A DNA stretch of 64,000 bases from Bacilli bacterium (GTDB lineage: Bacteria > Bacillota_I > Bacilli_A > ML615J-28 > CAG-698): contig CAKJYW010000003.1 in NCBI GenBank assembly GCA_918272565.1, positions 5,359 to 69,358 of the forward strand, read 5' to 3'. The notes below the pieces were generated by a model that saw only the letters and a program-made list of their open reading frames with translations, was not told where the DNA came from and made no database searches. Positions 28,723 to 46,144 of this stretch are shown one piece after another. Numbering within the stretch: position 1 is the first letter of the stretch; every line of letters begins with the position of its first letter. A program made the position numbers and the translations under genes.

Positions 28723-29316
28723 TTAATTAATTATTATTTCATCATTTTCAATTTTGTAATATAAACGTGTAACAATTCCTCTACTTTCATCACTAACAAT
28801 ATCATCATATACACCATAGATATCGATATGAATATAAAAATATCCCATTGACTCAGTAAATTTATATGAAGGAATTATTATTTCTTCATATTTTGAGTTT
28901 TCATCTATTCCATAATAAATACTTGGATAATCACTAAGACAAAAATCCTCAATAGTTTTGTAGATATATTCACTTATTTTTGTATGTATTGAAGTTTTCT
29001 TTTTCTTAGAACAAGAAGAATTATAATCTGTTATATAATACTCTTCATATTTACCATATTCTATTTTTATTTCTGCTGTGTATCTATCTGCAGGCACACC
29101 TTCTTTACTACGAAGTTTGAATCCCGATTGTACTCCAAAATATAATTTAATCAACACATCTTCGCCTTTTTTTATTCTGTTATTTTCTAAAATTGCTTTT
29201 GTAGACATTACTTTTTCTGCATTATCATATGAATCATCTATTATTTTCTTACATCCAAAAAAAGGAACTAGCAAAATTAAAATTACCAAAACTAGTATTT
29301 TTCTTTCTTTCATCAT
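28723..29316 (-). CDS. Hypothetical lipoprotein, array paralog 1
   Basis: Lipobox FFGC; IKKGEDV..KLY, EYGKY, YKTIEDFC, EEIIIPS shared with neighbours. Confidence 0.75.
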   Translation of the reverse strand: MMKERKILVLVILILLVPFFGCKKIIDDSYDNAEKVMSTKAILENNRIKKGEDVLIKLYFGVQSGFKLRSKEGVPADRYTAEIKIEYGKYEEYYITDYNSSCSKKKKTSIHTKISEYIYKTIEDFCLSDYPSIYYGIDENSKYEEIIIPSYKFTESMGYFYIHIDIYGVYDDIVSDESRGIVTRLYYKIENDEIIIN

Positions 29317-29349
29317 TTTTCCCTTTCTTTTTTTATCATTATAATTCCT

Positions 29350-29438
29350 CTCATACATTTATCCAACAAATTCAATTTTACTAAATTCAACAATATTCAT
29401 TTTAAAGACTATCCATTTTGTATCAGGATTAGAAGCAT
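29350..29438 (-). repeat. 89-bp direct repeat of 30851-30939 (3' remnant of a 30860-31390 paralog)
   Basis: Manual alignment gives 4 mismatches in 89 bp. Confidence 0.9.
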
Positions 29439-29446
29439 TAGTTGAA

Positions 29447-30130
29447 TTATTGATTTATTACTATACTATCGCCATTTAGTTCGTAAGAAATAAAGCACGT
29501 CACACCTCTAGGAGCAATTTCATCTATGTCGTCACCATAAATACCATATATGAATATTCCAAGACGAACATATCCTTTTTCTTCAGTAAAAATATAGGAA
29601 GGAAGAGTTATTTCTTCAAATTTAGAAGTATCATCGATTTTTGGATAAAAACTTGGATAATTATAAGAACAAAAATCATCAATTGTTTTATAACAATAAT
29701 CGTTTGTTTTTAGAAATTCCGTTTCATACCTATCACTTCCATCAGTATAAAAATTTGGTTGAATCAAAATTCTATTATATTTACCATATTCAATTTCTAA
29801 TTTAACTAAATAATCATCGGCATATACACCATCCCTTGTATATTTCATTTTATTAATGTTTTGCAAAGTTGTTCCTATATACAATTTAAAAACTAAATCT
29901 TCTCCTACTTTTATTGTGTCCTTTTCAAAAACAGGCTGAAAAGAAATAAGTTCTGGGCCAGAAACATCAGAAGAACTTGATGGAATGACAAAAACATCAT
30001 TAGCATCAGTCACTGCACTAGAATTAATTTTTTCATTATCTGTTTCAACTGTTGGGTTACCATTAGCGTTACATCCAAAACCAAATAAAGCAACTATTAG
30101 TATAAAACAAAAAAATACTGATTTCTTCAT
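29447..30130 (-). CDS. Hypothetical lipoprotein, array paralog 2
   Basis: Lipobox GFGC; IKVGEDL..KLY, EIEYGKY, YKTIDDFC, EEITLPS. Confidence 0.8.
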   Translation of the reverse strand: MKKSVFFCFILIVALFGFGCNANGNPTVETDNEKINSSAVTDANDVFVIPSSSSDVSGPELISFQPVFEKDTIKVGEDLVFKLYIGTTLQNINKMKYTRDGVYADDYLVKLEIEYGKYNRILIQPNFYTDGSDRYETEFLKTNDYCYKTIDDFCSYNYPSFYPKIDDTSKFEEITLPSYIFTEEKGYVRLGIFIYGIYGDDIDEIAPRGVTCFISYELNGDSIVINQ

Positions 30131-30859: not shown

Positions 30860-31390
30860 TTATCCAACAAATTCAATTTTACTGAATTCAACAATATTCA
30901 TTTTAAAGACTATCCATTTTGTGTCGGGAATAGAAGCATCAGGTACATATAAGTCTCTAGAGTTTTTATATTTCTTTCTGATCTCACACGTTATTTTCAA
31001 TGAATCGTCAACCAATCTTGCTTCAGTTATTATGTAGTATTTTTCTCCTAATTTTTCTGGATGCGCAGCTGTTGTAAAGCCATATAATACAACCATTTCG
31101 CTATTAAAATCGACATCAATAAAATCATCAAATGCTTTATTTAATTCTTCTTCACTTCTTATTTTTATTATTAATTCTTTTGGAAAACTATCATCATAAA
31201 TATAATACGTATACTCATTTATTACGTCTATTGCACCACATGTTTTATTGTTTGCTAGAAAATCTTTATTAAATGTGTAATCAGTATTTTTTAATATTTT
31301 TACATTATATTCGTTAGTGACATTTTCTTTACACGAACATCCAAATAATAGAGCAATGCAAGCTATTATATAAATTAGTACTTTTTTCAT
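30860..31390 (-). CDS. Hypothetical lipoprotein
   Basis: GAGGAGG RBS; lipobox LFGC. Confidence 0.75.
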   Translation of the reverse strand: MKKVLIYIIACIALLFGCSCKENVTNEYNVKILKNTDYTFNKDFLANNKTCGAIDVINEYTYYIYDDSFPKELIIKIRSEEELNKAFDDFIDVDFNSEMVVLYGFTTAAHPEKLGEKYYIITEARLVDDSLKITCEIRKKYKNSRDLYVPDASIPDTKWIVFKMNIVEFSKIEFVG

Positions 31391-32575: not shown

Positions 32576-33463
32576 TTAATTACTAATTCTACTGATGTAT
32601 TCTCTAATATCTCTAACTATACTACTTCTATTATGAATACTACTAGTAATCATAGCTACATACCTAACAGGTATCTCTTCTTCCAACTCTATTAAATATG
32701 CTCTTTTATTTTCTACACTTTCTTTAGCCATCTCACTAGGAATAAAAGCTAGTCCATAGTTTTTCTCAACCATTGGAAGTAAGACACTAGAACTATCTGC
32801 TTCAAATTCAGGGATGATCTCAACATTATGTTTAATTAAAAAATCATCAATATGGGCTCTAAATTGCATCTCTTCTGATAATAATATAAATGGGTATTTA
32901 GTAAGTTCAGAGATACTTCTTTTTTTGTTTGCTAAATCTTTGTATTTTTCCCCACACAATAACACATTATCAATCGTATAAACGTTTGTTATCCTTAAAT
33001 CATTATATTTTTGAAATGGTGTAGTAACAAAAGCCATGTCAATCTTACCATTTCTAACCATATCAAGTATTGAATGAGATGATCCAGTATATATCCTATA
33101 ATGAACATTAGGAAACTTCTTTTTAAATTCATTCATTGCATCAAACAAAAAGCAGTTTAGGGCAGTAACGGTTGCTCCCAAATAAACTACCTCATCAAAC
33201 ATTTTAGACTTGTCAGGCATTTCTTTATCGAGTCTAGAAAGTTCATTAAATGGATATTCTATTCTTTTATATAAGGCTTCACCTTCTTTTGTTAGTGTTA
33301 CTCCTTCTTTACTTCTAAAGAAGAGTTCCACTTTTAGTTCTTTTTCGATTGTTGAAATGATTCGACTAATAGCTGGCTGAGAAGTATAGAGAGCTTCAGC
33401 TGCCTTTGAAATATTCTTATACTGACACACAGTATAAAAGATTTTTAGATGTTCATAATTCAT
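32576..33463 (-). CDS. LysR-family transcriptional regulator
   Basis: NISKAAEALYTSQPAISR HTH; about 295 aa; divergent from the operon. Confidence 0.95.
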   Translation of the reverse strand: MNYEHLKIFYTVCQYKNISKAAEALYTSQPAISRIISTIEKELKVELFFRSKEGVTLTKEGEALYKRIEYPFNELSRLDKEMPDKSKMFDEVVYLGATVTALNCFLFDAMNEFKKKFPNVHYRIYTGSSHSILDMVRNGKIDMAFVTTPFQKYNDLRITNVYTIDNVLLCGEKYKDLANKKRSISELTKYPFILLSEEMQFRAHIDDFLIKHNVEIIPEFEADSSSVLLPMVEKNYGLAFIPSEMAKESVENKRAYLIELEEEIPVRYVAMITSSIHNRSSIVRDIREYISRISN

Positions 33464-33475
33464 AATAATCTCCTA

Positions 33476-33492
33476 TATAACAAAATGTTATA
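33476..33492. promoter_or_regulatory. LysR recognition site (T-N11-A palindrome)
   Basis: TATAACA-AAA-TGTTATA, about 50 bp upstream of the extended -10 TGTTATAAT (33533-33541). Confidence 0.65.
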
Positions 33493-33600
33493 ATAACATA
33501 ATAATTTATTTGTTTTTATTATACTATAAAAATGTTATAATGTATATATAGATAGATAAAATCAATATATTTATCTTATTAAATGAGGTGATTAAATCAA

Positions 33601-35265
33601 ATGAAGAAGCTCCGAATCATTTTGATGATTATTCCTCTTATTCTTCTCTCTATCTTTTTAACATCTTGTTCAAATAATGAAGAGAAAGTAAGTTACAATA
33701 ATCGCACTTATGATTTGTCTACTGATGGAAGTGCATCAGTAATTGCTAGAAGTGTTAAAGAAGGATCTAAATATACTTTAACAATTTCTGGAAGTGGAGA
33801 AGCAGTTGATTTTGACAGAAAAGAAAGTGTTCCATGGAACCCTATCATTAAAAGTATCGATAAGATCATCATCGAAGATGGTGTTACTAAGATTGGCAGT
33901 TATTATTTCTATTCATCAACAGTTGGTGAATTTTATTTACCACAATCCTTGAAAACGATTTCAGCTAATGCCTTTAATGAGAACGCCATAATCTACTCTT
34001 ATAGTCAAGATATAACTACTTCTATAACTAATAAGATTTACTATTATAGTGAAAAGGCGCCAAGTGAATTTGGCAAGTATTTCCATATTGTTGAAGGGAA
34101 AGCAACAGTTTGGAATAAGTACAAAGTGTTATTTGTAGGTAATAGCTTTACTTATTACACTTTAAGTGCTGAAGACCCAATGGTACCAAAGTATTTTAAA
34201 GAACTGGCAGATAGCTTAGGTGAAGCTGTTGAAATTGATTTTGTAATAAAAGGATCTCACACTCTAACAAAGTTTAGTAATCCAGAAGATGAGATGGGTA
34301 AAATCTTATATGATAAATTAAGTAAATCTAATGATTATACTCATGTAATATTACAAGAACAATCAACTGCTCCAATTAATAGTTACAATAGCTTTAAAGA
34401 AGCAGTTGGTAAAATTAAAGCGCTAGTTGATAAAACTCAAACAAATTGTGAAGTAGTCTTATACGAAACATGGGGTTCTCCAACAGCTATAAAGTCTACT
34501 GGTCATAAGACAATTGGTGCTATGGAAGAAGTTTTAAGAAATGCATATGAAGCTTGTGCTAAAGAATATGGATTAAAAGTTGATTATGTTGGTAAAGCTT
34601 TTACTTATACTTATGAAGTATTAGGTATAAACATCTTCTATGAAGACGAGCGACACCAAAACGAAGCCGGTGCATACCTATCAGCCGCAACTCACCTAGC
34701 ATCGATTTTAAAAATTGATGTTAGAGAATCTAGCTTTAAAGGTAACCTAGATAGTGAACTTGCGTCAATTTTACGTAGTGTTGCTCATAAAGTTGCTTTT
34801 AATTTACCACTTGATGGTGCAACTTCAAATAATCAAGAAAGTGAAGTAGATAACGAAAATCACTTAATAGTTATTGCTTGGTATAAGAAGACAGCTACAT
34901 CAGGTTTAACTGATGAAATAATGAATAGTTTTTTAATTAAGTTAAAATCTTATTTAAAAACATTAAATTATAGCGATGAAGAAATTAATTCTATATTAAT
35001 AAAAGGATACGAAGGAAACGTTGCTCCATCTTGTGAAGCAATTAAACAAGATGGGAATGTTGATATTATGATTGGTTGGAAATCAAACGTTGATACAACA
35101 GGTAATTTATCATTTATTGAGTCTTACCCCTCAAGTGCTGATGGTATTGGCATTAAAATGGGAGAAGTTGATGGTAGATGGATTCATCGTTTGACTGAAA
35201 CTGATATAGCTAAAGTGATATTTAACTGGATTATTGAAGAGAAAGATAACAATCTTTTTCAATAA
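33601..35265 (+). CDS. Lipoprotein: BspA-like LRR fragment + SGNH-type esterase + novel C-terminal domain
   Basis: Lipobox LTSC; IEDGVTKIGSYYF...LPQSLKTISANAF; VLFVGNSF, ILQEQS, YETW, DERH (DxxH). Confidence 0.8.
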   Translation: MKKLRIILMIIPLILLSIFLTSCSNNEEKVSYNNRTYDLSTDGSASVIARSVKEGSKYTLTISGSGEAVDFDRKESVPWNPIIKSIDKIIIEDGVTKIGSYYFYSSTVGEFYLPQSLKTISANAFNENAIIYSYSQDITTSITNKIYYYSEKAPSEFGKYFHIVEGKATVWNKYKVLFVGNSFTYYTLSAEDPMVPKYFKELADSLGEAVEIDFVIKGSHTLTKFSNPEDEMGKILYDKLSKSNDYTHVILQEQSTAPINSYNSFKEAVGKIKALVDKTQTNCEVVLYETWGSPTAIKSTGHKTIGAMEEVLRNAYEACAKEYGLKVDYVGKAFTYTYEVLGINIFYEDERHQNEAGAYLSAATHLASILKIDVRESSFKGNLDSELASILRSVAHKVAFNLPLDGATSNNQESEVDNENHLIVIAWYKKTATSGLTDEIMNSFLIKLKSYLKTLNYSDEEINSILIKGYEGNVAPSCEAIKQDGNVDIMIGWKSNVDTTGNLSFIESYPSSADGIGIKMGEVDGRWIHRLTETDIAKVIFNWIIEEKDNNLFQ

Positions 35266-35318
35266 TATAAATTTGATTTAAAAAGTAAAATAATTTTCAT
35301 TTTTTTAAGGAGGATAAC

Positions 35319-37205
35319 ATGAAAATCAAAAAACTTTTATTATTATTTTTAGTAGCCTTTTTGTTCTTAGGCTTCGTAGGTTGTGGAAAGGGTAATAAAG
35401 ACGAAAAAGAGCCTGACAAACCAGACGATCCTAGTCAAGGAGAAGTAATCGAAAAGGAAACTTTCACAGTTATATTTGAAAGCGAAGGAACTCGTCATGC
35501 AACTGTTAAAGTTAAAGATGGAGAAAAGATTACTGCTGAAGTAAATAACCCTTCAAAAGATGGTTATTCTTTTGTTGGATGGTTCAAAGGTGAAGAAAAA
35601 GTTGATCTAGCTACATTTGTAGTAACAGAGAATGTTACACTTGTTGCTAAATTTGAAAGTGATGCAATTGATAACACACTTGATGTAAATGCTAAGAAAG
35701 AAGCTGGAAAGACTTACACATTAGTAATCGGTTGGTGGGAAGTTAAAAACCCTGATGACCCAGACAAGAAGACAAGTTATTTAACTGAAGAATTAGTTAA
35801 GAAATTCTATACTAACGTAAATCTTTACTTAAAAGTTAAAGGCTTAAGCGATGCTGAAATAGCTAATGTTCAATTCCGTAACTACTCAACTGCAACAGTT
35901 GCTGATATGGGTGCATTAGTTAATGAAGATGGTGATGTAGATATTATGATTGGTGTTGGTAACAACATTAATTCAACTGCTGGTGTTGCTCTATTTGAAG
36001 GAAGTAACGATAACAAGTTTGCAACTCTAATGGGTTCTACTCCAACTTCTCGTTATGTAGCTTTAACATCAGTTGCTACAACTTTAGGTGTTAATGTATA
36101 TGACTGGTTAACTACAGAAACTGGTAAAAAAGCATTTAATGAAATGTTAAAAGAATCTGACATCCAAATCGCTCCTGCAAGAACATCAGAAGCTAATGTT
36201 GATGTAACAGTTCATACTGGTGTAGAAGATGAAAAATTACATTTTGCTTCTAAAGACGATGAATTCCAATTACCAGAAGTAGCAGTTCCAGAAGGATATG
36301 TATTTGATGGATTTGCATTAAGCGATGGTGGCGAATTAGTATTATCAAAAGCAAATGGCGATGTATTAAAATATGCTGATATTAAAGGTTTACTTGGAGA
36401 AGCAACTTCTATTGAATTATTCCCAGTATATAGCGTATTAGTTGTTTCTGAAGAAGATTTGAATGTTTATATCCAATTAAATAATGGATTAAAAGAAGGC
36501 GAAGCTGAATTACTTGTTGCAAGATTCAGACAAACAGTTGATAGCTCTTTAACTATTGCCTTCACATTCATTGAAGGAAATGCTGACACATTCACTGCTG
36601 AACTTAATAATGCTTCAAGTCAAGTAGATGTTATCATCGGTGGAAATAACCCACTTAAGAATTATCCTGCTCATGAAGATGGTAAGTTAGCTAACGCTGG
36701 TGCTAAACACTTTGCTGATGGAAGCCGTAAAGTATTAATTCATGCTAATACTCAACACTTAGAACTTGCTAAGAAATTATATGACTTTGTTGTAGCTGAT
36801 GCTCCAGCATATGAATTACATATCACATTCTGGCTAAATGAAAACAAGTGGATCACAGTTGATGAACTTGCCGCATTAAAGAGCGGACTTGAAACATTCA
36901 TTAATACAAGATTCGCTTTAGCTGATGGCGCTAATTTATATGATCTATATAACTTCAAAGTAACTACTTACGATGCTACAAACACTAAAGTTGCTGAACT
37001 TGGTGAAGAAACAAGAGCTCAAAGAGACGGTAAAGGAACAGATTTAATTGTTGGCTGTGGCGCTAATGTAACAACAACAGGTGGATTTGAAGATGCATTT
37101 GTTAAAGACATTAACACAACAATGGTTGCTGCTGGAAGAAAAGTTGCTTTAATCAACTCTAACCCACTTACTATGGCAATATACTTTAATTTCTTTACTG
37201 AATAA
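35319..37205 (+). CDS. Lipoprotein: InlB B-repeat-like domains + three copies of the novel domain
   Basis: Lipobox FVGC; PSKDGYSFVGWF...NVTLVAKF and PEGYVFDGF; repeated VDIMIG/VDVIIG/TDLIVG. Confidence 0.8.
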   Translation: MKIKKLLLLFLVAFLFLGFVGCGKGNKDEKEPDKPDDPSQGEVIEKETFTVIFESEGTRHATVKVKDGEKITAEVNNPSKDGYSFVGWFKGEEKVDLATFVVTENVTLVAKFESDAIDNTLDVNAKKEAGKTYTLVIGWWEVKNPDDPDKKTSYLTEELVKKFYTNVNLYLKVKGLSDAEIANVQFRNYSTATVADMGALVNEDGDVDIMIGVGNNINSTAGVALFEGSNDNKFATLMGSTPTSRYVALTSVATTLGVNVYDWLTTETGKKAFNEMLKESDIQIAPARTSEANVDVTVHTGVEDEKLHFASKDDEFQLPEVAVPEGYVFDGFALSDGGELVLSKANGDVLKYADIKGLLGEATSIELFPVYSVLVVSEEDLNVYIQLNNGLKEGEAELLVARFRQTVDSSLTIAFTFIEGNADTFTAELNNASSQVDVIIGGNNPLKNYPAHEDGKLANAGAKHFADGSRKVLIHANTQHLELAKKLYDFVVADAPAYELHITFWLNENKWITVDELAALKSGLETFINTRFALADGANLYDLYNFKVTTYDATNTKVAELGEETRAQRDGKGTDLIVGCGANVTTTGGFEDAFVKDINTTMVAAGRKVALINSNPLTMAIYFNFFTE

Positions 37206-37217
37206 AAAGGATGACTA

Positions 37218-38015
37218 ATGATTAAAATAAAAAAGATTATATTATTACTACTTGCTTTCTCTAGTGCTTTTATTCTAGCAAGCTGTGCTGCTAAAGGCTT
37301 AGAAAAAGAAATCAATGTAGTTTTCGAGGTCGATGGAGAATATATATCTTGTGGTAAAGTAACTCAATTTGATAGTATCTTTACTCCAGAACTAGACGAG
37401 GCTTATATCCCACTAGGATATAAGTTCCTCGGATGGACTCCATACGAATTAAATGAAGTAAAACCAACTGATCCAAATCTAAAAGATAAGTATGTACCTG
37501 CTGGAAAGATGGTTCATTATTCAGAAGTTTGTGATAAAGCATTAAATTCAACAGTAGTTTTAAAAGCATTAATGTTTGATAAGGCTGATATTCCTGTTGA
37601 ATATCATTATGTAGTTATCGCTTGGTACGATAAAGAAACAACAAGTGGTATTACAGCTGCCAAGATGGATGAACTTCTTACAGCACTAACAAATCACTTA
37701 CGCTCAACTGGCGTTAGTGAAGACGATATTAAATCAATCGTTATTAGAGGTTACGACGGAAACGTTGGTGCATCTACTGGTAAAATCGTAGATGACGATG
37801 ATGTTGACATCATGTTTGGATGGGGCTCTGCTGAAAATGTAACAACTACAGGTGTTTTAAAACCTGAGATGTTAAAGGAAACTGAAGCAAACTACACAAT
37901 CATGTATAATGGAGCCGCAAAATCAAGAACAATCCACCGCTTAACTGATAAACCAACTGCTATTCTAGTAATGGAATGGTTAAAATCAGATGAGTGTCGT
38001 GCATTGTTTAATTAG
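37218..38015 (+). CDS. Lipoprotein: B-repeat-like domain + novel domain
   Basis: Lipobox LASC; PLGYKFLGW; VIAWY...GYDGNV...VDIMFGW. Confidence 0.8.
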   Translation: MIKIKKIILLLLAFSSAFILASCAAKGLEKEINVVFEVDGEYISCGKVTQFDSIFTPELDEAYIPLGYKFLGWTPYELNEVKPTDPNLKDKYVPAGKMVHYSEVCDKALNSTVVLKALMFDKADIPVEYHYVVIAWYDKETTSGITAAKMDELLTALTNHLRSTGVSEDDIKSIVIRGYDGNVGASTGKIVDDDDVDIMFGWGSAENVTTTGVLKPEMLKETEANYTIMYNGAAKSRTIHRLTDKPTAILVMEWLKSDECRALFN

Positions 38016-38026
38016 GGAGGCGTGTT

Positions 38027-40432
38027 ATGAAGAAAAAACTTTTAACTACTGCCCAAGTATTTGAATATATTTTTACTTTCTTACACATGTTTGCTTCAGC
38101 ACTATTCTTCTCAGTAAGAAATAACTTATACATTATGTTTTTAGTGTTTGCTGTAGTAAGCATTGTACTTGGTTTATATACTGAAACAATTAAATTTCAC
38201 TTAAATGAAAAAGATTATAAGATTCACTTAATCGTAATAACTATTTTATCTATAGTTAGCTTTCCTGCTTGTTTATTTAATTTACTTGCAATATTAGCAA
38301 ACAAAGATAGTAAAGTTATTAAAGTAGCTAATTTAGAATATAAAGAAAAAGAATGTTGTAAAGAAAGAAAAGTTAAACCTGCATTAATAGTTTTAATCGT
38401 TTCTCTTGTTTTAATCATTGTATCTAGCATTATAGGTAATGTATTTGAAACAAGTGGAGGAACTGTTAAAGTTGTTGATGGTGTTATAACAAGTGAAGAC
38501 TGTGCTTTATACAACAAGGGTGAAGATAATGCCTTAAATGGTGTTAATTATGTAATTGAAGACCCTCATGTACAAGTTGCATACACTATGTATAAACCAA
38601 AAGCAGCTTCAGCTACAAACCCTTATCCAGTTGTATTTGTTACTCCAGGCTTTACAAGAACTAAAGCTACAATGACACAATATGCAATTGAACTATCACG
38701 TAGAGGTGCTGTAGTATTTGTTATTGACCCAGGAAGTCAAGGAGACACTACATTTGGTGGATACCAAGTTGATGAAAATGGTGAATATGTTCTTGATGAA
38801 AATGGTGATAAGATTCAAAACTCATACAGTGTTGCTCGTAGTGGTATGGGTTACTTAATGCAATATGTATATAATGATGTAGATGATTTTGATTTTATCG
38901 ATAGAGATAGAATCGGTCTAGTTGGTCATAGCGCTGGTGGAGGCGATGCAGCAAAACTTGCTTCAGACTTTGCTGGTAGTAATTATAACGAATCAATTGT
39001 TAAAGCATTATATATTTCTGGTTACATCAAAGCTTCAGCAATCAAAGTATTTGCTAAACTTCATTGTAACGCAGCAATAAGCTATGCAAAATATGATGAA
39101 GGTGCTTTTAGATATCAAACTAAAGATGAATCATATGAAGCAGCAGCCTTAGAATTTATTGATAAAGTAAATCCTGATTCAGGACATTTCATTCAAGATT
39201 ATGATTATGGTTCAATAGATAACGGAACATACCGTATCATTCATCACGAAGAAATCAATCATTGCTTCGAAATGTATGATCCACTATCAATTAGTAACAC
39301 TACATCATTCTTCCGTGAAACTTTAAACATTGATACTACTATAGAAGATACTAGTCAAGTGTGGTTTATTAGAGAATGTGCTAATGGAATTAGCCTTGTA
39401 GCTGCATTTATGCTTGTAATTAGTCTTGCTAGTCTAATTATTGCTTATGTTCCATTTATGAAATCATTATCTAAAGCTGCTAGTGAAAGACGCGAAGATG
39501 AAAAAGCAATCAGAGCCGCCTACACTCTTAACCTTTATGAAAGAGCAATGGCAGGAAGCGATGCAGAAGAAAGAACTTTCACAAAAAGATTATTATTCTG
39601 GCTACCAACTATTCTAACCGCAATCATTGCATGCTTAGATTACATTCCACTTGCTAGACTATCTATGGACTTATTCCCAGATGCAGCTGGTAATGTTTAT
39701 ACATTCTACTTCCCAGCAAGAATGATGAACGCAGTATTTTTGTGGGCTGTAGTAAACGGCTTTATCGGACTAGTTGTCTGGGCACTAACAACTGTTTGTG
39801 AAAATTTAGTATACACAATCATTAGTAAGGTTAAAAACGTTGAAAACAAATCTGATTGGAGTAAATTCAAAGGTCTAAAAGTTAAACCTCTTGATTTATT
39901 AAAATCAGTTGGTCTAGCAGTATTACTATTCTTGGTATTCTTTGGTGTATTACAAGTTGTTTACTGGACAACTCACCAAGACTTTAGATTTATGCTAATA
40001 TCAGCATCTCCATTAAATAAGAGATTTGTTATGACATGGTTAATTTACCTATGTGGATTCTTAGTATTCTATCTATCTAACTCAATTAGAGTTAATCTAA
40101 CTATCGCAAGAGAAGGCTTTAAAGAATGGCAAGTTATGATTATTGGTGGTCTTGCTAACTCTTTAGGTTTACTATTCATCCTAATCATTAACTACTGGCC
40201 ATACTTCACAAATGGTACAGTATTCTATGGATACTATAGTGCAACTGACTCAAGCGAAATGTGGTTATATATTAATATGGTATTTGGATTAGTCGTTATG
40301 ATGTTTATCCTACCTATATTTAATAGAATTATTTATAAGAAGACAGGTAATGTTTATTGTGGCGCATTATTATGGTGTATGATATTTATCATGATGAGCT
40401 TATCAGCATCAATTTCATTTATTCCAATGTAA
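38027..40432 (+). CDS. Polytopic membrane alpha/beta hydrolase
   Basis: PVVFVTPGF, RIGLVGHSAGG nucleophile elbow; several N-terminal and about 8 C-terminal hydrophobic helices. Confidence 0.85.
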   Translation: MKKKLLTTAQVFEYIFTFLHMFASALFFSVRNNLYIMFLVFAVVSIVLGLYTETIKFHLNEKDYKIHLIVITILSIVSFPACLFNLLAILANKDSKVIKVANLEYKEKECCKERKVKPALIVLIVSLVLIIVSSIIGNVFETSGGTVKVVDGVITSEDCALYNKGEDNALNGVNYVIEDPHVQVAYTMYKPKAASATNPYPVVFVTPGFTRTKATMTQYAIELSRRGAVVFVIDPGSQGDTTFGGYQVDENGEYVLDENGDKIQNSYSVARSGMGYLMQYVYNDVDDFDFIDRDRIGLVGHSAGGGDAAKLASDFAGSNYNESIVKALYISGYIKASAIKVFAKLHCNAAISYAKYDEGAFRYQTKDESYEAAALEFIDKVNPDSGHFIQDYDYGSIDNGTYRIIHHEEINHCFEMYDPLSISNTTSFFRETLNIDTTIEDTSQVWFIRECANGISLVAAFMLVISLASLIIAYVPFMKSLSKAASERREDEKAIRAAYTLNLYERAMAGSDAEERTFTKRLLFWLPTILTAIIACLDYIPLARLSMDLFPDAAGNVYTFYFPARMMNAVFLWAVVNGFIGLVVWALTTVCENLVYTIISKVKNVENKSDWSKFKGLKVKPLDLLKSVGLAVLLFLVFFGVLQVVYWTTHQDFRFMLISASPLNKRFVMTWLIYLCGFLVFYLSNSIRVNLTIAREGFKEWQVMIIGGLANSLGLLFILIINYWPYFTNGTVFYGYYSATDSSEMWLYINMVFGLVVMMFILPIFNRIIYKKTGNVYCGALLWCMIFIMMSLSASISFIPM

Positions 40433-40445
40433 GAGGTGATTACTT

Positions 40446-41618
40446 ATGAACATTAAAGAAGAATCATTAAAGTGTCATTATAATTGGCGCGGAAAAATTG
40501 AAATTAAACCAAGAGTAGAAGTAGATACTTGTGAAAAGTTATCTTTAGCTTATACTCCTGGAGTAGCTGAGGCATGTATGGAGATACACAATCACCCAGA
40601 AAAGAGTTTTGAACTTACAAGACGTTGGAATACAGTACCAGTTATAACCGATGGAACTGCAGTGCTTGGTCTTGGAGATATTGGACCTGAAGCTGGTATG
40701 CCAGTTATGGAAGGTAAAGCTGCACTATTTAAGACATTTGGTGATGTAGATGCTTACCCTTTATGTATTAGAAGTAAAGACACAGAAGAAATTATTAAAA
40801 CAATTAAGCTACTTGCTGGTTCTTGGGGTGGAATTAACCTAGAAGATATCTCAGCTCCTCGTTGTTTTGAAATTGAAACAAGACTTAAAGAAGAACTTGA
40901 TATTCCAGTATTCCACGATGATCAACACGGAACTGCAATTGTCACTGCAGCTGCTTTAATTAATGCTTTAAAGATAGTTAATAAAGAAATGAGTGAAATC
41001 AAAGTAGTTATTAACGGAGCAGGAGCAGCAGGTATTTCAATCTGTCGTTTCTTAATTAAGTTTGGTGTTACAAATGCTTTAATTTGTGATAGGCAAGGAA
41101 TTATCTACCGAGGTGCCCCTTGGCTTAACCCATCACAAGCAAAGATTGCTGAAATAACTAATAAAGACAATATTGAAGGATCTTTAAGTGAAGCTATGAA
41201 AGGTGCTGATGTATTTATTGGTGTATCTGGACCAAACTGTGTTACTCAAGATATGGTTAGATCAATGGCAGATAAATCAATCCTATTTACTTTAGCAAAT
41301 CCAATCCCAGAAATTGATCCAAAACTAGCTAAAGAAGCAGGAGCTTACATTATTGGTACAGGTTCAAGTCAATATCCAAACCAAATCAATAACGTATTAG
41401 TATTCCCTGGTTTATTTAGAGGAGCAATAGATGCTAAAGCAACAACCATTAACGATGAGATGATGAAAGCAGCATCAATTGGAATTGCTAGCTGTGTAAG
41501 TAGCGAAGAATTAAGACGTGAATACATCCTACCATTTGCATATGACAAGAAAGCTCACAAATGTGTTAGTGAAAAAGTAAAAGAAGCTGCAATCCAAACT
41601 GGAGTTATTAAAAAATAA
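40446..41618 (+). CDS. NAD(P)-dependent malic enzyme
   Basis: [54 protein letters not shown]. Confidence 0.96.
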
Positions 41619-41620
41619 TA

Positions 41621-41660
41621 AAAAATAAGGAGTAAATCAAATGATTTACTCCTCTTTTTT
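41621..41660. terminator. Bidirectional terminator
   Basis: AGGAGTAAATCA/TGATTTACTCCT stem with A/T runs. Confidence 0.85.
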
Positions 41661-43721: not shown

Positions 43722-44114
43722 TTAAAAAATGTATAGACCTTTATTTTTGTGATCTAATATTTTATGACAAACTCTCACTCTATTTACAATTACCCTTTTA
43801 CTAACATCTAATTCTAATATTTCTAAATTATTGAAAATAATTATTGATATATCATTTTTAATATCAATGTCCTTTATATTGAAATAATTAATCCAATAAG
43901 TTTTAAAACTCACAACCTTAAACAGCAAAATCTTTTCATTAACATATATAGGAACATTATATTTAAGCTTTAAAAGTTTTCTTACTGCTTCAACCCTTCC
44001 ATTCAATGTTGAAAAGCTTTTAATACATAAACTATTTACATACTTTTTAAAAGTTGTATCCATCTCTTTACCATCAACATTTATTTTTACTATTTCATCT
44101 ATTATATAATTCAT
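43722..44114 (-). CDS. ComK-family-like protein
   Basis: C...STLNGRVEAVRKLL...VPIYV...LLF...WIN pattern resembles the ComK core. Confidence 0.6.
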   Translation of the reverse strand: MNYIIDEIVKINVDGKEMDTTFKKYVNSLCIKSFSTLNGRVEAVRKLLKLKYNVPIYVNEKILLFKVVSFKTYWINYFNIKDIDIKNDISIIIFNNLEILELDVSKRVIVNRVRVCHKILDHKNKGLYIF

Positions 44115-44206
44115 TCTATCACCAAATAGATTATAGCATAGATTTTTACTTTCGTTTTTGAAAAAAATAAAAACTCAAATTGGTTTCAATTTGAGCTTTT
44201 GGTTTC

Positions 44207-44956
44207 TTATTCTTCTACTAATTTATTCTTTTTTACTTTTCCTTTAATCCATTTAATAATTGGAACAATATAAACTAACGTATCACAAAGTAGTGCTAAA
44301 GCGAAATATCTTAAAATATAGACAAACCATCCTTGATTTAGGTTAAGGTATGGAAGACCTTCTTGAGGAGGTCCACTAACATACATGAAGTTTACACTAT
44401 TATCTCCATCTCTAATCCAACTATTTAGATATATTGCTACAAAGAAACAAGCAAAGAGCATTACTAAGCTATGAATATAATCTTTTACAGTAAACTCTAC
44501 TTCGTTAGTTCTTAGTAAAAATATTGCAAAGCAAACAATCATTGTATGGAATCCAAAATACTGAATAGTGATAATTGGAAAGTTTCTAGAACTATATGTA
44601 GCAATTAAAAGTGCCGCAAATCCTCCAATTAGGCATGTTGGAAGCATAAAAGACATAAGTAGTTTCTTTAGATTTTCATTTTTAGAAAAATAAAGAATAA
44701 TAATTAATATTATTTGTATTGAACAAAGGTGAAAAGGAAGATCTCCTTTTGGTAAATATCCCCATCCATCAAATTTATCGATGTTATGAATAACGTAAAA
44801 GAACACTTTAATTGTTTCTGATATTATTCCACCAATTAGTAATATTTTAATAACTGTTGCTAATTTGATTTTCTTTGATATAAATATTGATAATATTATT
44901 ATCGGCAAGCAAATAGATAAAGAAATCAAATGAACAGTTCCAAATAAATCATGCAT
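44207..44956 (-). CDS. YwaF-like integral membrane protein
   Basis: LFGTVH, LPFHLCS, FGFH, NFMY. Confidence 0.75.
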   Translation of the reverse strand: MHDLFGTVHLISLSICLPIIILSIFISKKIKLATVIKILLIGGIISETIKVFFYVIHNIDKFDGWGYLPKGDLPFHLCSIQIILIIILYFSKNENLKKLLMSFMLPTCLIGGFAALLIATYSSRNFPIITIQYFGFHTMIVCFAIFLLRTNEVEFTVKDYIHSLVMLFACFFVAIYLNSWIRDGDNSVNFMYVSGPPQEGLPYLNLNQGWFVYILRYFALALLCDTLVYIVPIIKWIKGKVKKNKLVEE

Positions 44957-45022
44957 ATAAATACTCCTAAAAAATAAGTGGATGAATAATCATCCACTAA
45001 ATAATTATTATTTATTAATTTA

Positions 45023-46144
45023 TTATAATCTCTTAATTCTCATTTCTGTTTCAGGATCAAAGAAGTGAGCTTTTTCCATATTGAATGCAAGTTCAATATC
45101 ATCACCCATATGAAGGTCAACTCTTGCACCAACCTTAGCTACAAGGTTTTGTCCATTCATAATAGCATAGATATTAGTTTCAGCACCTAGTAATTCACTA
45201 ACGTCAACTTTTAGTTTAACAACTGCGCCTGCATATTTTTCAAATAGTTCAGGTTCATCGTGTAAATCTTCTGGTCTAATACCCATAATGATTGGTTTTT
45301 CAATGAAGTGGTTTTCTTTAAGAATGTTCATGCTCTTTTCACTAATCTTAATCTTAGAAACACCAACTTTATGATCACCAACAACGAAGTAGCCATCATC
45401 ATCAACCATACCTTCAAGGAAGTTCATAGGAGGAGTTCCAATGAATCCACCAACGAAGATGTTGTTAGGGTTGTCATAAATATCTTTTGGAGTACCAACT
45501 TGTTGGATCAAACCATCTTTCATAACAACGATTCTTGATGCCATTGTCATGGCTTCAATTTGGTCATGTGTTACGTAGATTGTTGTGATACCTAATCTTT
45601 CAGTAATCTTAATGATTTCAGATCTCATTTGTACACGTAGCTTAGCATCCAAGTTTGATAGAGGTTCGTCCATCAAGAATACCTTAGCATCACGTACGAT
45701 AGCTCTACCTAAGGCAACACGTTGTCTTTGACCACCTGACAAAGCTTTAGGACGACGATCTAAGTAAGGTTTAAGTCCTAAAATTTCAGCAGCTTCATTA
45801 ACTCTTCTTTCGATTTCATCTTTACTGAATTTACGAAGTTTTAGACCAAATGCCATGTTATCATAAACTGTCATATGAGGATACAAAGCGTAGCTTTGGA
45901 AAACCATCGCGATATTACGATCTTTAGGTGCAACATCATTAACGATTTCATCATCAATTCTTAATTCACCTGATGTAATTTCTTCAAGACCAGCAACCAT
46001 TCTTAGTGTAGTAGTTTTTCCACATCCAGAAGGTCCAACAAATACGATAAATTCCTTATCTTTAATCTTTAAGTTAAAGTCAACAACGGCATGAACATTG
46101 CCATCATAAACCTTATTAATGTTAGTAAGTGTTACAGTTGCCAT
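45023..46144 (-). CDS. msmX: Carbohydrate ABC ATPase (MsmX/UgpC family)
   Basis: GPSGCGKT, LSGGQRQR, DEPLSNLD, GFIGTPPMN, TOBE-like C-terminus. Confidence 0.9.
   Translation of the reverse strand: MATVTLTNINKVYDGNVHAVVDFNLKIKDKEFIVFVGPSGCGKTTTLRMVAGLEEITSGELRIDDEIVNDVAPKDRNIAMVFQSYALYPHMTVYDNMAFGLKLRKFSKDEIERRVNEAAEILGLKPYLDRRPKALSGGQRQRVALGRAIVRDAKVFLMDEPLSNLDAKLRVQMRSEIIKITERLGITTIYVTHDQIEAMTMASRIVVMKDGLIQQVGTPKDIYDNPNNIFVGGFIGTPPMNFLEGMVDDDGYFVVGDHKVGVSKIKISEKSMNILKENHFIEKPIIMGIRPEDLHDEPELFEKYAGAVVKLKVDVSELLGAETNIYAIMNGQNLVAKVGARVDLHMGDDIELAFNMEKAHFFDPETEMRIKRL

Follow-up and report, generated by a model that had tools for sequence, protein, structure and literature searches.

We analysed a window of 64,000 nucleotides (nt), corresponding to positions 5359-69358 of contig C3 in the genome of an uncultured cattle-gut bacterium (G000; 1.69 Mb in 47 contigs, with a completeness rating of 97.4%). 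It harbours a block of six genes coding for a LysR-type transcriptional regulator, three surface lipoproteins, a membrane-embedded esterase and a malic enzyme (ME). Five of them follow one another on the plus strand and encode the lipoproteins LipoA (33601-35265), LipoB (35319-37205) and LipoC (37218-38015), a polytopic membrane serine hydrolase of 801 residues (HYD; 38027-40432) and a small NAD(P)-malic enzyme (40446-41618). The LysR gene (32576-33463) is on the minus strand, divergent from this operon and separated from it by a promoter spacer of 137 nt (33464-33600). The block is flanked by housekeeping genes, with rpsD upstream and tpiA-pgk downstream, and the G+C content of the region is ~30-36%.

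The gaps in the five-gene run are 53, 12, 11 and 13 nt, and all five starts are preceded by purine-rich ribosome-binding motifs (GAGGTGA, AAGGAGGA, AAGGA, GGGAGG and AAGAGGTGA, in gene order). The 13 nt between the stop codon of the hydrolase gene and the start of the ME gene contain no terminator-like site, and the latter has a ribosome-binding site of its own. The run is closed by a bidirectional intrinsic terminator (41628-41653; stem of 11-12 bp, loop of 4) with T-runs on both strands, which also serves the convergent tpiA gene. An earlier note, made from the sequence of the window, had described five co-oriented genes with these gaps, a ribosome-binding site each and a single terminator, all of which we found where it had placed them.

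We compared the block with related loci, namely the best 80 of 116 hydrolase matches in a scan of species-representative genomes (43-78% identity). We call 'informative' the 47 of them with at least 1.3 kb on both sides of the hydrolase gene. A homolog of LipoA, LipoB or LipoC is encoded upstream of the hydrolase in 76 of the 80 loci, the other four having no more than 399 nt of upstream DNA. The domain shared by the lipoproteins, called WY after its motif W-Y-x-K-x-x-T-S-G, was detected by profile in 78 of 81 loci. Over the 80 loci, the SGNH lipoprotein is present in 60, the ME in 63 and a LysR homolog in 48, the latter mostly divergent from the operon. The ME gene is adjacent to the rest of the operon and co-oriented with it in 39 of the 47 informative loci. 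In Bacilli it comes at the end of the operon, most of them having the order LysR(divergent)-SGNH-WY-WY-HYD-ME with gaps of 13-63 nt to the ME gene, and it comes first in Clostridia. There, and in a few Bacilli, the order is LysR(divergent)-ME-SGNH-WY-HYD, and the ME-SGNH spacer in Clostridia is ~90-290 nt. With at least three further permutations, the linkage is kept through at least five gene orders. The module, malic enzyme included, is real and conserved. The proposal that it forms an undescribed co-regulated module is thus strongly supported, since neither the linkage of the ME gene in other genomes nor the co-occurrence of the genes, both set as tests in the earlier note, refuted it. We found no description of the cluster in the literature covered, subscription journals and supplements being outside that coverage, and the word 'undescribed' holds only for these searches.

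In a genome of the same genus (G003), the order is pgk-tpiA-(240 nt)-rpsD, with nothing of the block in between. The 9.3 kb from LysR to ME are thus a single presence/absence difference, i.e. one insertion or deletion. According to their labels, the carriers are uncultured gut or rumen Bacilli, Mollicutes and Erysipelotrichaceae, Clostridia (Christensenella, Borkfalkiaceae, Coproplasma and Gallimonas), three spirochaete bins and a few others, and the samples come from the rumen or gut of cattle, buffalo, deer, sheep, chicken, rabbit and horse. Such a patchy spread across lineages points to horizontal transfer, and the block is therefore likely to be a horizontally mobile module. Four bins (L092, L046, L043 and L103) are labelled Alistipes, Prevotella or Lachnospiraceae, and their ME and hydrolase group with those of the Bacilli or Clostridia carriers; these labels may be binning or label errors.

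The commonest neighbour beyond the five cluster families is a family I inorganic pyrophosphatase (PF00719), found in 16 of 81 loci. The position of its gene (e.g. L042:13617-14198, 202 bits) varies: in Clostridia it is upstream of LysR, in some Bacilli it follows ME and in L057 it lies within the cluster. A search of G000 with this query gave no homolog. No riboswitch was detected with Rfam (E ≤0.1) between positions 31000 and 43000 of the window or in the cluster leaders of six loci. In L058, a cobalamin riboswitch (positions 293-504, 59 bits) is located ~4 kb upstream of the LysR gene, outside the cluster.

We also looked for the stretch in public sequencing data. All or part of it is present in DNA runs of 13 studies, mostly of bovine gut, two possible source runs being set aside. 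Contigs of four bovine-gut RNA libraries, from four studies, match each of the five genes, differing from them at few positions, and span the spacer between LipoA and LipoB. They leave the hydrolase-ME junction unbridged and parts of the hydrolase gene uncovered, and neither show nor refute co-transcription. The five genes may thus be expressed in the bovine gut, with DNA carry-over as a possible source of these contigs.

The ME contains both domains of its family, PF00390 (99 bits) and PF03949 (90.7 bits), above their cut-offs, as expected of a small NAD(P)-malic enzyme. Its best solved relatives are the NAD-malic enzyme 5cee (E 1.7e-127) and 2a9f (E 3.9e-125). Its assignment in the earlier note was therefore correct. 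It scores 82.4 bits with the malolactic enzyme model NF041582, for a cut-off of 850, and its gene is the sole PF00390 gene found in G000.

We built trees of 73 malic enzymes, 58 of them linked to the cluster and 15 unlinked, including ten from the order of the window's genome. A single clade holds 57 of the 58 linked enzymes and none of the 15 unlinked ones, with a support of 94 (Shimodaira-Hasegawa-like approximate likelihood ratio test) in one of two trees; the linked enzyme of L086 falls outside. The unlinked enzymes of ten relatives are 46-61% identical to that of the window, the value for a same-genus genome without the cluster being 61%. In contrast, linked enzymes from other orders or classes reach 77% identity to it, with a median pairwise identity of 72% among linked enzymes. 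In the window's order, an ME is present in 44 of 61 genomes and close hydrolase homologs in three of 61. The window ME thus appears from its sequence to belong to a clade that is specific to the cluster and travels with it.

The unlinked ME genes of relatives are found in two contexts, either between Ldh_2 and LarA genes or followed by an aspartase/fumarase-like gene. Since these are hydroxy-acid operons, the ME of this lineage probably acts in C4 or hydroxy-acid metabolism. In two loci without the cluster (L107:5969-9645 and L112:6851-10502), the ME gene has that of an Ldh_2-family dehydrogenase on one side and, on the other, that of a LarA racemase (nickel-dependent; 620 bits for a cut-off of 460). 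Open reading frames (ORFs) of matching size flank the ME gene in six further loci (L109-L111, L113 and L114, and on one side in L108).

The association between ME and the other genes might be historical rather than functional, if a LysR-ME pair and a lipoprotein-hydrolase cassette happened to share a mobile segment. Eight of the 47 informative loci have no linked ME gene, there is only a moderate correlation (r 0.50) between the pairwise identities of ME and those of the hydrolase, and the ME-SGNH spacers of Clostridia leave room for a separate promoter. Against this stand the survival of the linkage through repeated reordering, with the adjacent ME co-oriented in all 39 loci, the short gaps in Bacilli and the separate clade formed by the linked enzymes. 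Furthermore, no integrase or transposase recurs among the neighbours in the 80 loci, and a plasmid search with the hydrolase gave one remote match of 20% identity and no close copy. We therefore regard a purely historical linkage as very unlikely.

The regulator contains both defining domains of LysR proteins, PF00126 (67 bits, cut-off 26.6) and PF03466 (115.6 bits, cut-off 28), and matches no NCBIfam equivalog at cut-off, the best score being 142.5 bits for a required 250. A T-N11-A palindrome (TAACAAAATGTTA) is present at positions 33478-33490 of the divergent spacer, where the earlier note had reported it. The pattern occurs three times in the window for 1.76 expected, and 31 of 100 shuffled sequences reach three. 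Among 45 LysR-operon spacers, that of the window included, ten have perfect T-N11-A palindromes, whose sequences differ. A role for this box as a conserved operator is thus not supported. As the palindrome is at chance level and not conserved, it is at best a putative LysR box.

The three lipoproteins have predicted lipoboxes at residues 20-23 (LTSC in LipoA, FVGC in LipoB and LASC in LipoC). All of 30 LipoC homologs have Cys23, as do at least 90% of 59 LipoA homologs. LipoA is made of BspA-type leucine-rich repeats (LRR), an SGNH esterase domain (residues ~175-400) and a WY domain (423-547; E 4.3e-42 with the WY profile). Its SGNH domain matches DUF4886 (PF16227) with 27.7 bits for a cut-off of 26.7, and residues G180-N181-S182, D349 and H352, which correspond to SGNH blocks I and V, are invariant in the 59 sequences. 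LRR_5 and DUF4886 were detected in 49 and 38 of these homologs, respectively. LipoB consists of a Listeria-Bacteroides (InlB B-repeat) domain (PF09479, 51.3 bits) and two WY domains (135-267 and 503-628), between which there is possibly a degenerate third copy that the profile does not match. LipoC consists of a B-repeat-like N-terminal part and one WY domain (129-265). It is related to LipoA (38% identity over 144 residues, E 4e-26) and to LipoB (E 1e-8, BLASTP). The lipoboxes and the WY profile, with one, two and one copies, bear out the notion of three lipoproteins with a shared unnamed domain.

The WY profile was built from 30 domain copies and searched against the loci and 1.84 billion representative proteins, in which it found 255 relatives at E ≤0.001. 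Across loci, there are one to five copies per protein. The residues conserved across copies are those of the naming motif, followed by G-x-V, D-x-D-I-M-x-G and an Arg. Neither LipoC nor the WY domain matches a Pfam family, and no periplasmic-binding-protein family scores. In the predicted model of LipoC (mean predicted local distance difference test, pLDDT, 92), the N-terminal part resembles an InlB B-repeat. The WY domain aligns with the ModA-type protein 4kd5 (Z 11.3, root-mean-square deviation 2.6, 113 of 229 residues aligned, between chain positions 42 and 262). The next matches, with Z of 8-10, are sulfate-, iron- and maltodextrin-binding proteins and LysR effector domains. The model thus presents the WY domain as a single lobe of the type-2 periplasmic-binding-protein fold, rather than the two hinge-joined lobes found in type-2 solute-binding proteins.

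In the representative library, the WY domain is also found in long surface proteins, where it was seen at the end of P0190, after LRR, a GH13 alpha-amylase domain, three CBM26 and DUF4886, and at the end of P0207, after three SLH, two CBM26 and DUF4886. A metagenome scan for the genomic context of P0190 returned two cut contigs without cluster genes. Other large WY proteins of 941-1293 residues harbour B-repeats, and three of them also have GLUG motifs.

The membrane hydrolase was modelled with a mean pLDDT of 79.6 and a predicted template modelling score of 0.79. The predicted layout comprises N-terminal membrane helices (residues 1-141), an alpha/beta-hydrolase domain (~142-445) and a C-terminal domain with eight model helices (446-801). 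The GHSAG elbow and the triad S302, D357 and H412, invariant in 26 of 26 homologs, are those of alpha/beta hydrolases. Together with the invariant SGNH residues of LipoA, they establish the presence of two serine hydrolases of different folds proposed in the earlier note. In structural comparisons, a feruloyl esterase ranks first (7z2u; Z 16.1, root-mean-square deviation 3.0, 207 residues aligned over 146-436). PET46 also scores a Z of 16.1, and cutinases were found at a Foldseek probability of 1.00. Every other loop is enriched in Lys and Arg residues, a distribution that puts the hydrolase domain on the outer side of the membrane. Based on the model and these loop charges, the protein thus has an outward-facing feruloyl-esterase/cutinase-like domain set between membrane helices.

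The C-terminal membrane domain has many invariant polar residues, and conserved motifs are on outward loops beside the hydrolase domain. A profile of the domain gave no match to PDB sequences at E ≤10. Pfam yielded no recurrent family, neither AT3 nor MBOAT scoring on the membrane protein, and for residues 445-801 there was no usable named Atlas cluster. Searches with the whole protein in Foldseek and VIA found alpha/beta hydrolases and nothing else. Judging from these searches, the domain probably belongs to no known family; we do not claim a new fold. A predicted complex of the hydrolase with the WY domain of LipoC scored 0.00 in a run without controls, which gives no verdict either way.

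Around more distant hydrolase homologs, with 22-30% identity (G004, G021, G025, G026 and G040), there are neither lipoprotein nor ME genes, and their contexts have nothing in common. One of them (~25% identity, 652 residues compared with 801) is encoded 46 nt downstream of a gene for an FGGY-family kinase (L020:9092-12580, genome G004). Among the related loci, the hydrolase match is in two overlapping pieces in L103 (3224-6477), due to a duplication or a frameshift, and lacks its middle part in L052 (4227-6161).

Our tentative proposal, to which we give appreciable but limited confidence, is that the block encodes a surface esterase apparatus that provides a dedicated malic enzyme with a C4 acid, malate being the likeliest one. 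The six-gene, LysR-controlled module would build this apparatus at the cell surface, genetically coupled to the ME. The lipoproteins, with their B-repeat or LRR binding modules and their one to several WY domains, would capture an esterified substrate. The SGNH (DUF4886) lipoprotein and the outward Ser-Asp-His domain of the polytopic protein would cleave it. A C4 hydroxy-acid, most simply L-malate, would then enter the cytoplasm, for which the C-terminal membrane domain of the hydrolase itself might be the route, and the ME would turn it into pyruvate, CO2 and NAD(P)H. This mechanism is based on gene order and conservation, folds, invariant catalytic residues, outward topology, the ME clade and the presence or absence of the block within a genus. 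From these data, we infer joint action of the proteins, an ester as the bond cleaved, malate as the product and entry through the membrane domain. A domain resembling feruloyl esterases could cleave hydroxycinnamoyl-malates, and hydroxycinnamoyl-malate and polymalate as substrates are guesses.

The gene content of G000 was also considered. No match to Ldh_1_C, Ldh_2 or class I fumarase was found, and the genome is thus devoid of a recognised lactate or malate dehydrogenase of the Ldh_1_C and Ldh_2 families; an internal source of malate is therefore not evident. Similarly, no carrier of the 2HCT (PF03390), DASS or AEC (PF03547) families was found in G000. No ATPase or known permease family of the ATP-binding cassette (ABC), tripartite ATP-independent periplasmic (TRAP) or tripartite tricarboxylate transporter (TTT) type scored in the six genes at E ≤0.1 (Pfam and NCBIfam). 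The earlier remark that no ABC ATPase, permease or malate carrier is included thus holds for the cluster, while the genome has a DcuC-family carrier elsewhere.

A number of observations weigh against malate as the product. The DcuC-family carrier outside the cluster, together with an aspartase/class-II-fumarase-like gene in G000, makes a separate malate import or an internal malate route possible. No ME gene adjoins the cluster in eight of the 47 informative loci, and the three spirochaete loci (one among these eight, the other two cut upstream) have none in the available DNA. Five ME-less carriers (L069, L075, L089, L099 and L102) have only an unlinked generic ME of 57-61% identity, indicating that the hydrolase apparatus works without a dedicated ME. 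The correlation between ME and hydrolase identities is moderate, as mentioned above. Structural matches to thioesterases, methylesterases and dienelactone hydrolases are within one Z unit of the feruloyl-esterase match. In two ME-less loci (L069 and L100), the hydrolase gene is followed by that of a CE2-type acetyl-esterase, and two of ten long WY proteins have starch-binding CBM26 domains, one of them also with a GH13 amylase domain; both features point to carbohydrate esters, whose acid would not be malate. The near-general absence of ketoacyl synthase from carriers, described below, points to other substrates as well. The earlier idea of surface ester scavenging thus stands as regards a conserved module with an ME, whereas the CE2 genes, the CBM26 fusions and the synthase-less carriers point to substrates other than malate esters.

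The family assignments of the hydrolase bear on one such substrate. At E ≤1, the PETase/cutinase-like family PF12740 matches 26 of 26 hydrolase homologs (best E 5.6e-9), BD-FAE (PF20434) 24 of 26 and AXE1 six of 26; the window hydrolase reaches 21.6 bits with PF12740, whose cut-off is 28. The structural neighbours include feruloyl esterases of Lactobacillus, Geobacillus and Butyrivibrio, a CE15 glucuronoyl esterase and the methylesterase BT1017. The apparatus might therefore strip acetyl, feruloyl or similar esters from plant polysaccharides or starch at the cell surface, the ME being co-regulated without consuming the product. The CE2_N and GDSL esterase genes after the hydrolase gene in L069 and L100, the fusions of WY with GH13, CBM26 and DUF4886 in P0190 and with SLH, CBM26 and DUF4886 in P0207, and the many MalE-type sugar-binding proteins among the WY lobe matches (Z ~9) are in line with this idea. 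However, Pfam detects no glycoside hydrolase or sugar transporter in the window cluster, which is thus not a polysaccharide utilisation locus, and none recurs among the neighbours in the 80 loci. Moreover, CBM26, found in two of the ten long proteins, is missing from all 59 SGNH lipoproteins of the loci, and the dedicated ME clade would be left unexplained. We consider this function unlikely.

Another possibility, which we likewise find rather improbable, is that the block serves to scavenge lipids or fatty acids in bacteria unable to make them, surface lipases freeing acyl chains that the membrane domain would import. It stems from the distribution of ketoacyl synthase (PF00109), which has no match in G000 and is present in 14 of 14 control genomes. 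Of 30 carrier genomes from Bacilli, Clostridia and spirochaetes, 27 gave no match, two a weak one (~25 bits) and one a strong one. Judging from its gene content, the bacterium of the window looks unable to make fatty acids. In addition, SGNH and cutinase/PAF-acetylhydrolase-like folds include lipases, the conserved motifs of the membrane domain are on the outward loops beside the hydrolase domain, and one distant hydrolase homolog is encoded beside a gene of the FGGY sugar/glycerol kinase family. Nevertheless, 43 of 60 relatives have no strong synthase match, and the synthase is absent from 49 of 81 genomes of the order of G081; such absence being common in non-carriers, the enrichment is modest and confounded by ancestry. 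In that order, the cluster is found in one of 81 genomes only, the centre genome, too few to compare cluster presence with synthase loss. Lipid scavenging is further at odds with the lack of a fatty-acid kinase or binding gene in the cluster and of an obvious role for the ME, and genomes with distant hydrolase homologs (G004, G021, G025, G040 and G055) do have the synthase.

The fold of the WY domain also brings to mind an importer of free malate or another dicarboxylate, with WY lipoproteins as receptors, the polytopic protein as a permease and hydrolysis as a secondary activity. The likeness of WY to a lobe of ModA, sulfate-binding protein and MalE (Z 9-11.3), the constant pairing of a WY lipoprotein with the membrane protein, the linked ME and the lack of 2HCT, DASS and AEC carriers among those found in G000 all speak for it. 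However, the two invariant catalytic triads argue that hydrolysis is essential, and, having a single lobe, a WY domain by itself cannot close on a ligand as two-lobed binding proteins usually do. The membrane domain is unlike any known transporter, and the genome has its DcuC-family carrier elsewhere. Such an importer is thus highly improbable. Coming back to a surface esterase apparatus that feeds the malic enzyme, a more specific version of it would be a hydrolysis-coupled, ATPase-free importer. Arrays of single-lobe WY domains would hand the ester over to the membrane-built esterase, and its C-terminal domain would conduct the acid, malate or an acyl group, inward to the ME. This version we hold to be decidedly unlikely.

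Whatever the substrate, the module combines two domains without family assignment, WY and the C-terminal membrane domain of the hydrolase, with the DUF4886 domain, to which no activity is assigned. Their genetic tie to a well-understood cytoplasmic malic enzyme opens the function of these domains to concrete tests. Should the acid be malate, gut bacteria would have a new way to get C4 acids from plant esters, and if the membrane domain is a conduit, it would represent a new transporter architecture. A hydrolysis-coupled importer, if true, would do without an ATPase what binding-protein-dependent transport does, and would be confined to gut bacteria with reduced genomes. If fatty acids or acetyl groups are freed instead, the system would show how bacteria devoid of fatty-acid synthesis feed in the gut. 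The carriers are, as labelled, uncultured reduced-genome Bacilli, Christensenellales-type Clostridia and spirochaetes.

Around the block, the window contains further genes of note. Four successive ORFs of 176-239 residues without Pfam family are present on the minus strand between positions 28723 and 31390, two of which (28723-29358 and 29447-30130) are paralogs and cluster together. After pgk, the minus strand (43722-46144) carries a ComK-like gene and genes for a TMEM164-family membrane protein and a MalK-type ABC ATPase. The order MalK-ComK-pgk-tpiA is preserved in genomes of the same genus.

We finally compared the block with known systems. Its regulator and enzyme recall the MleR-mleS-mleP and mae loci of lactic acid bacteria, which are LysR-controlled malate decarboxylation loci. 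As in those loci, the LysR gene of the cluster is divergent from an operon that holds a decarboxylase of the malic enzyme family. Here, in contrast, the enzyme is a small NAD(P)-malic enzyme instead of a malolactic enzyme, no 2HCT or AEC permease is encoded in the cluster or was found in the genome, and four extra genes code for surface lipoproteins and a membrane hydrolase. Similar to ABC, TRAP and TTT binding-protein systems, lipoproteins with a predicted binding-protein fold are encoded beside a polytopic membrane protein. The block differs from these systems in that WY has one lobe only, there is no ATPase or known permease and the membrane partner carries a hydrolase.

The combination of a polytopic membrane protein with an extracytoplasmic protein of the SGNH fold is also found in OatA, PatA/PatB and DltB/DltD, which are systems of a membrane acyltransferase plus an SGNH protein. 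Unlike in those systems, the membrane protein of the block has no AT3 or MBOAT domain and itself carries an alpha/beta hydrolase, and no surface-polymer biosynthesis genes are nearby. Membrane acyltransferase and SGNH systems are also treated in a 2022 review (PMC9487903), and in the available portions of its text DUF4886 is listed with no known activity. The LipoA domain matches DUF4886 at cut-off, and two structural-genomics entries (4s1p and 4i8i) are its sequence relatives. In the block, this domain is part of a lipoprotein, fused to BspA-type LRR and WY, inside a conserved operon. Finally, the hydrolase shares its fold, G-H-S-A-G elbow and Ser-Asp-His triad with feruloyl/cinnamoyl esterases and cutinase/PETase-like hydrolases. 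The known feruloyl esterases and cutinases are soluble, secreted proteins of ~260 residues, whereas in the block the corresponding domain is inserted between membrane helices and a C-terminal domain.

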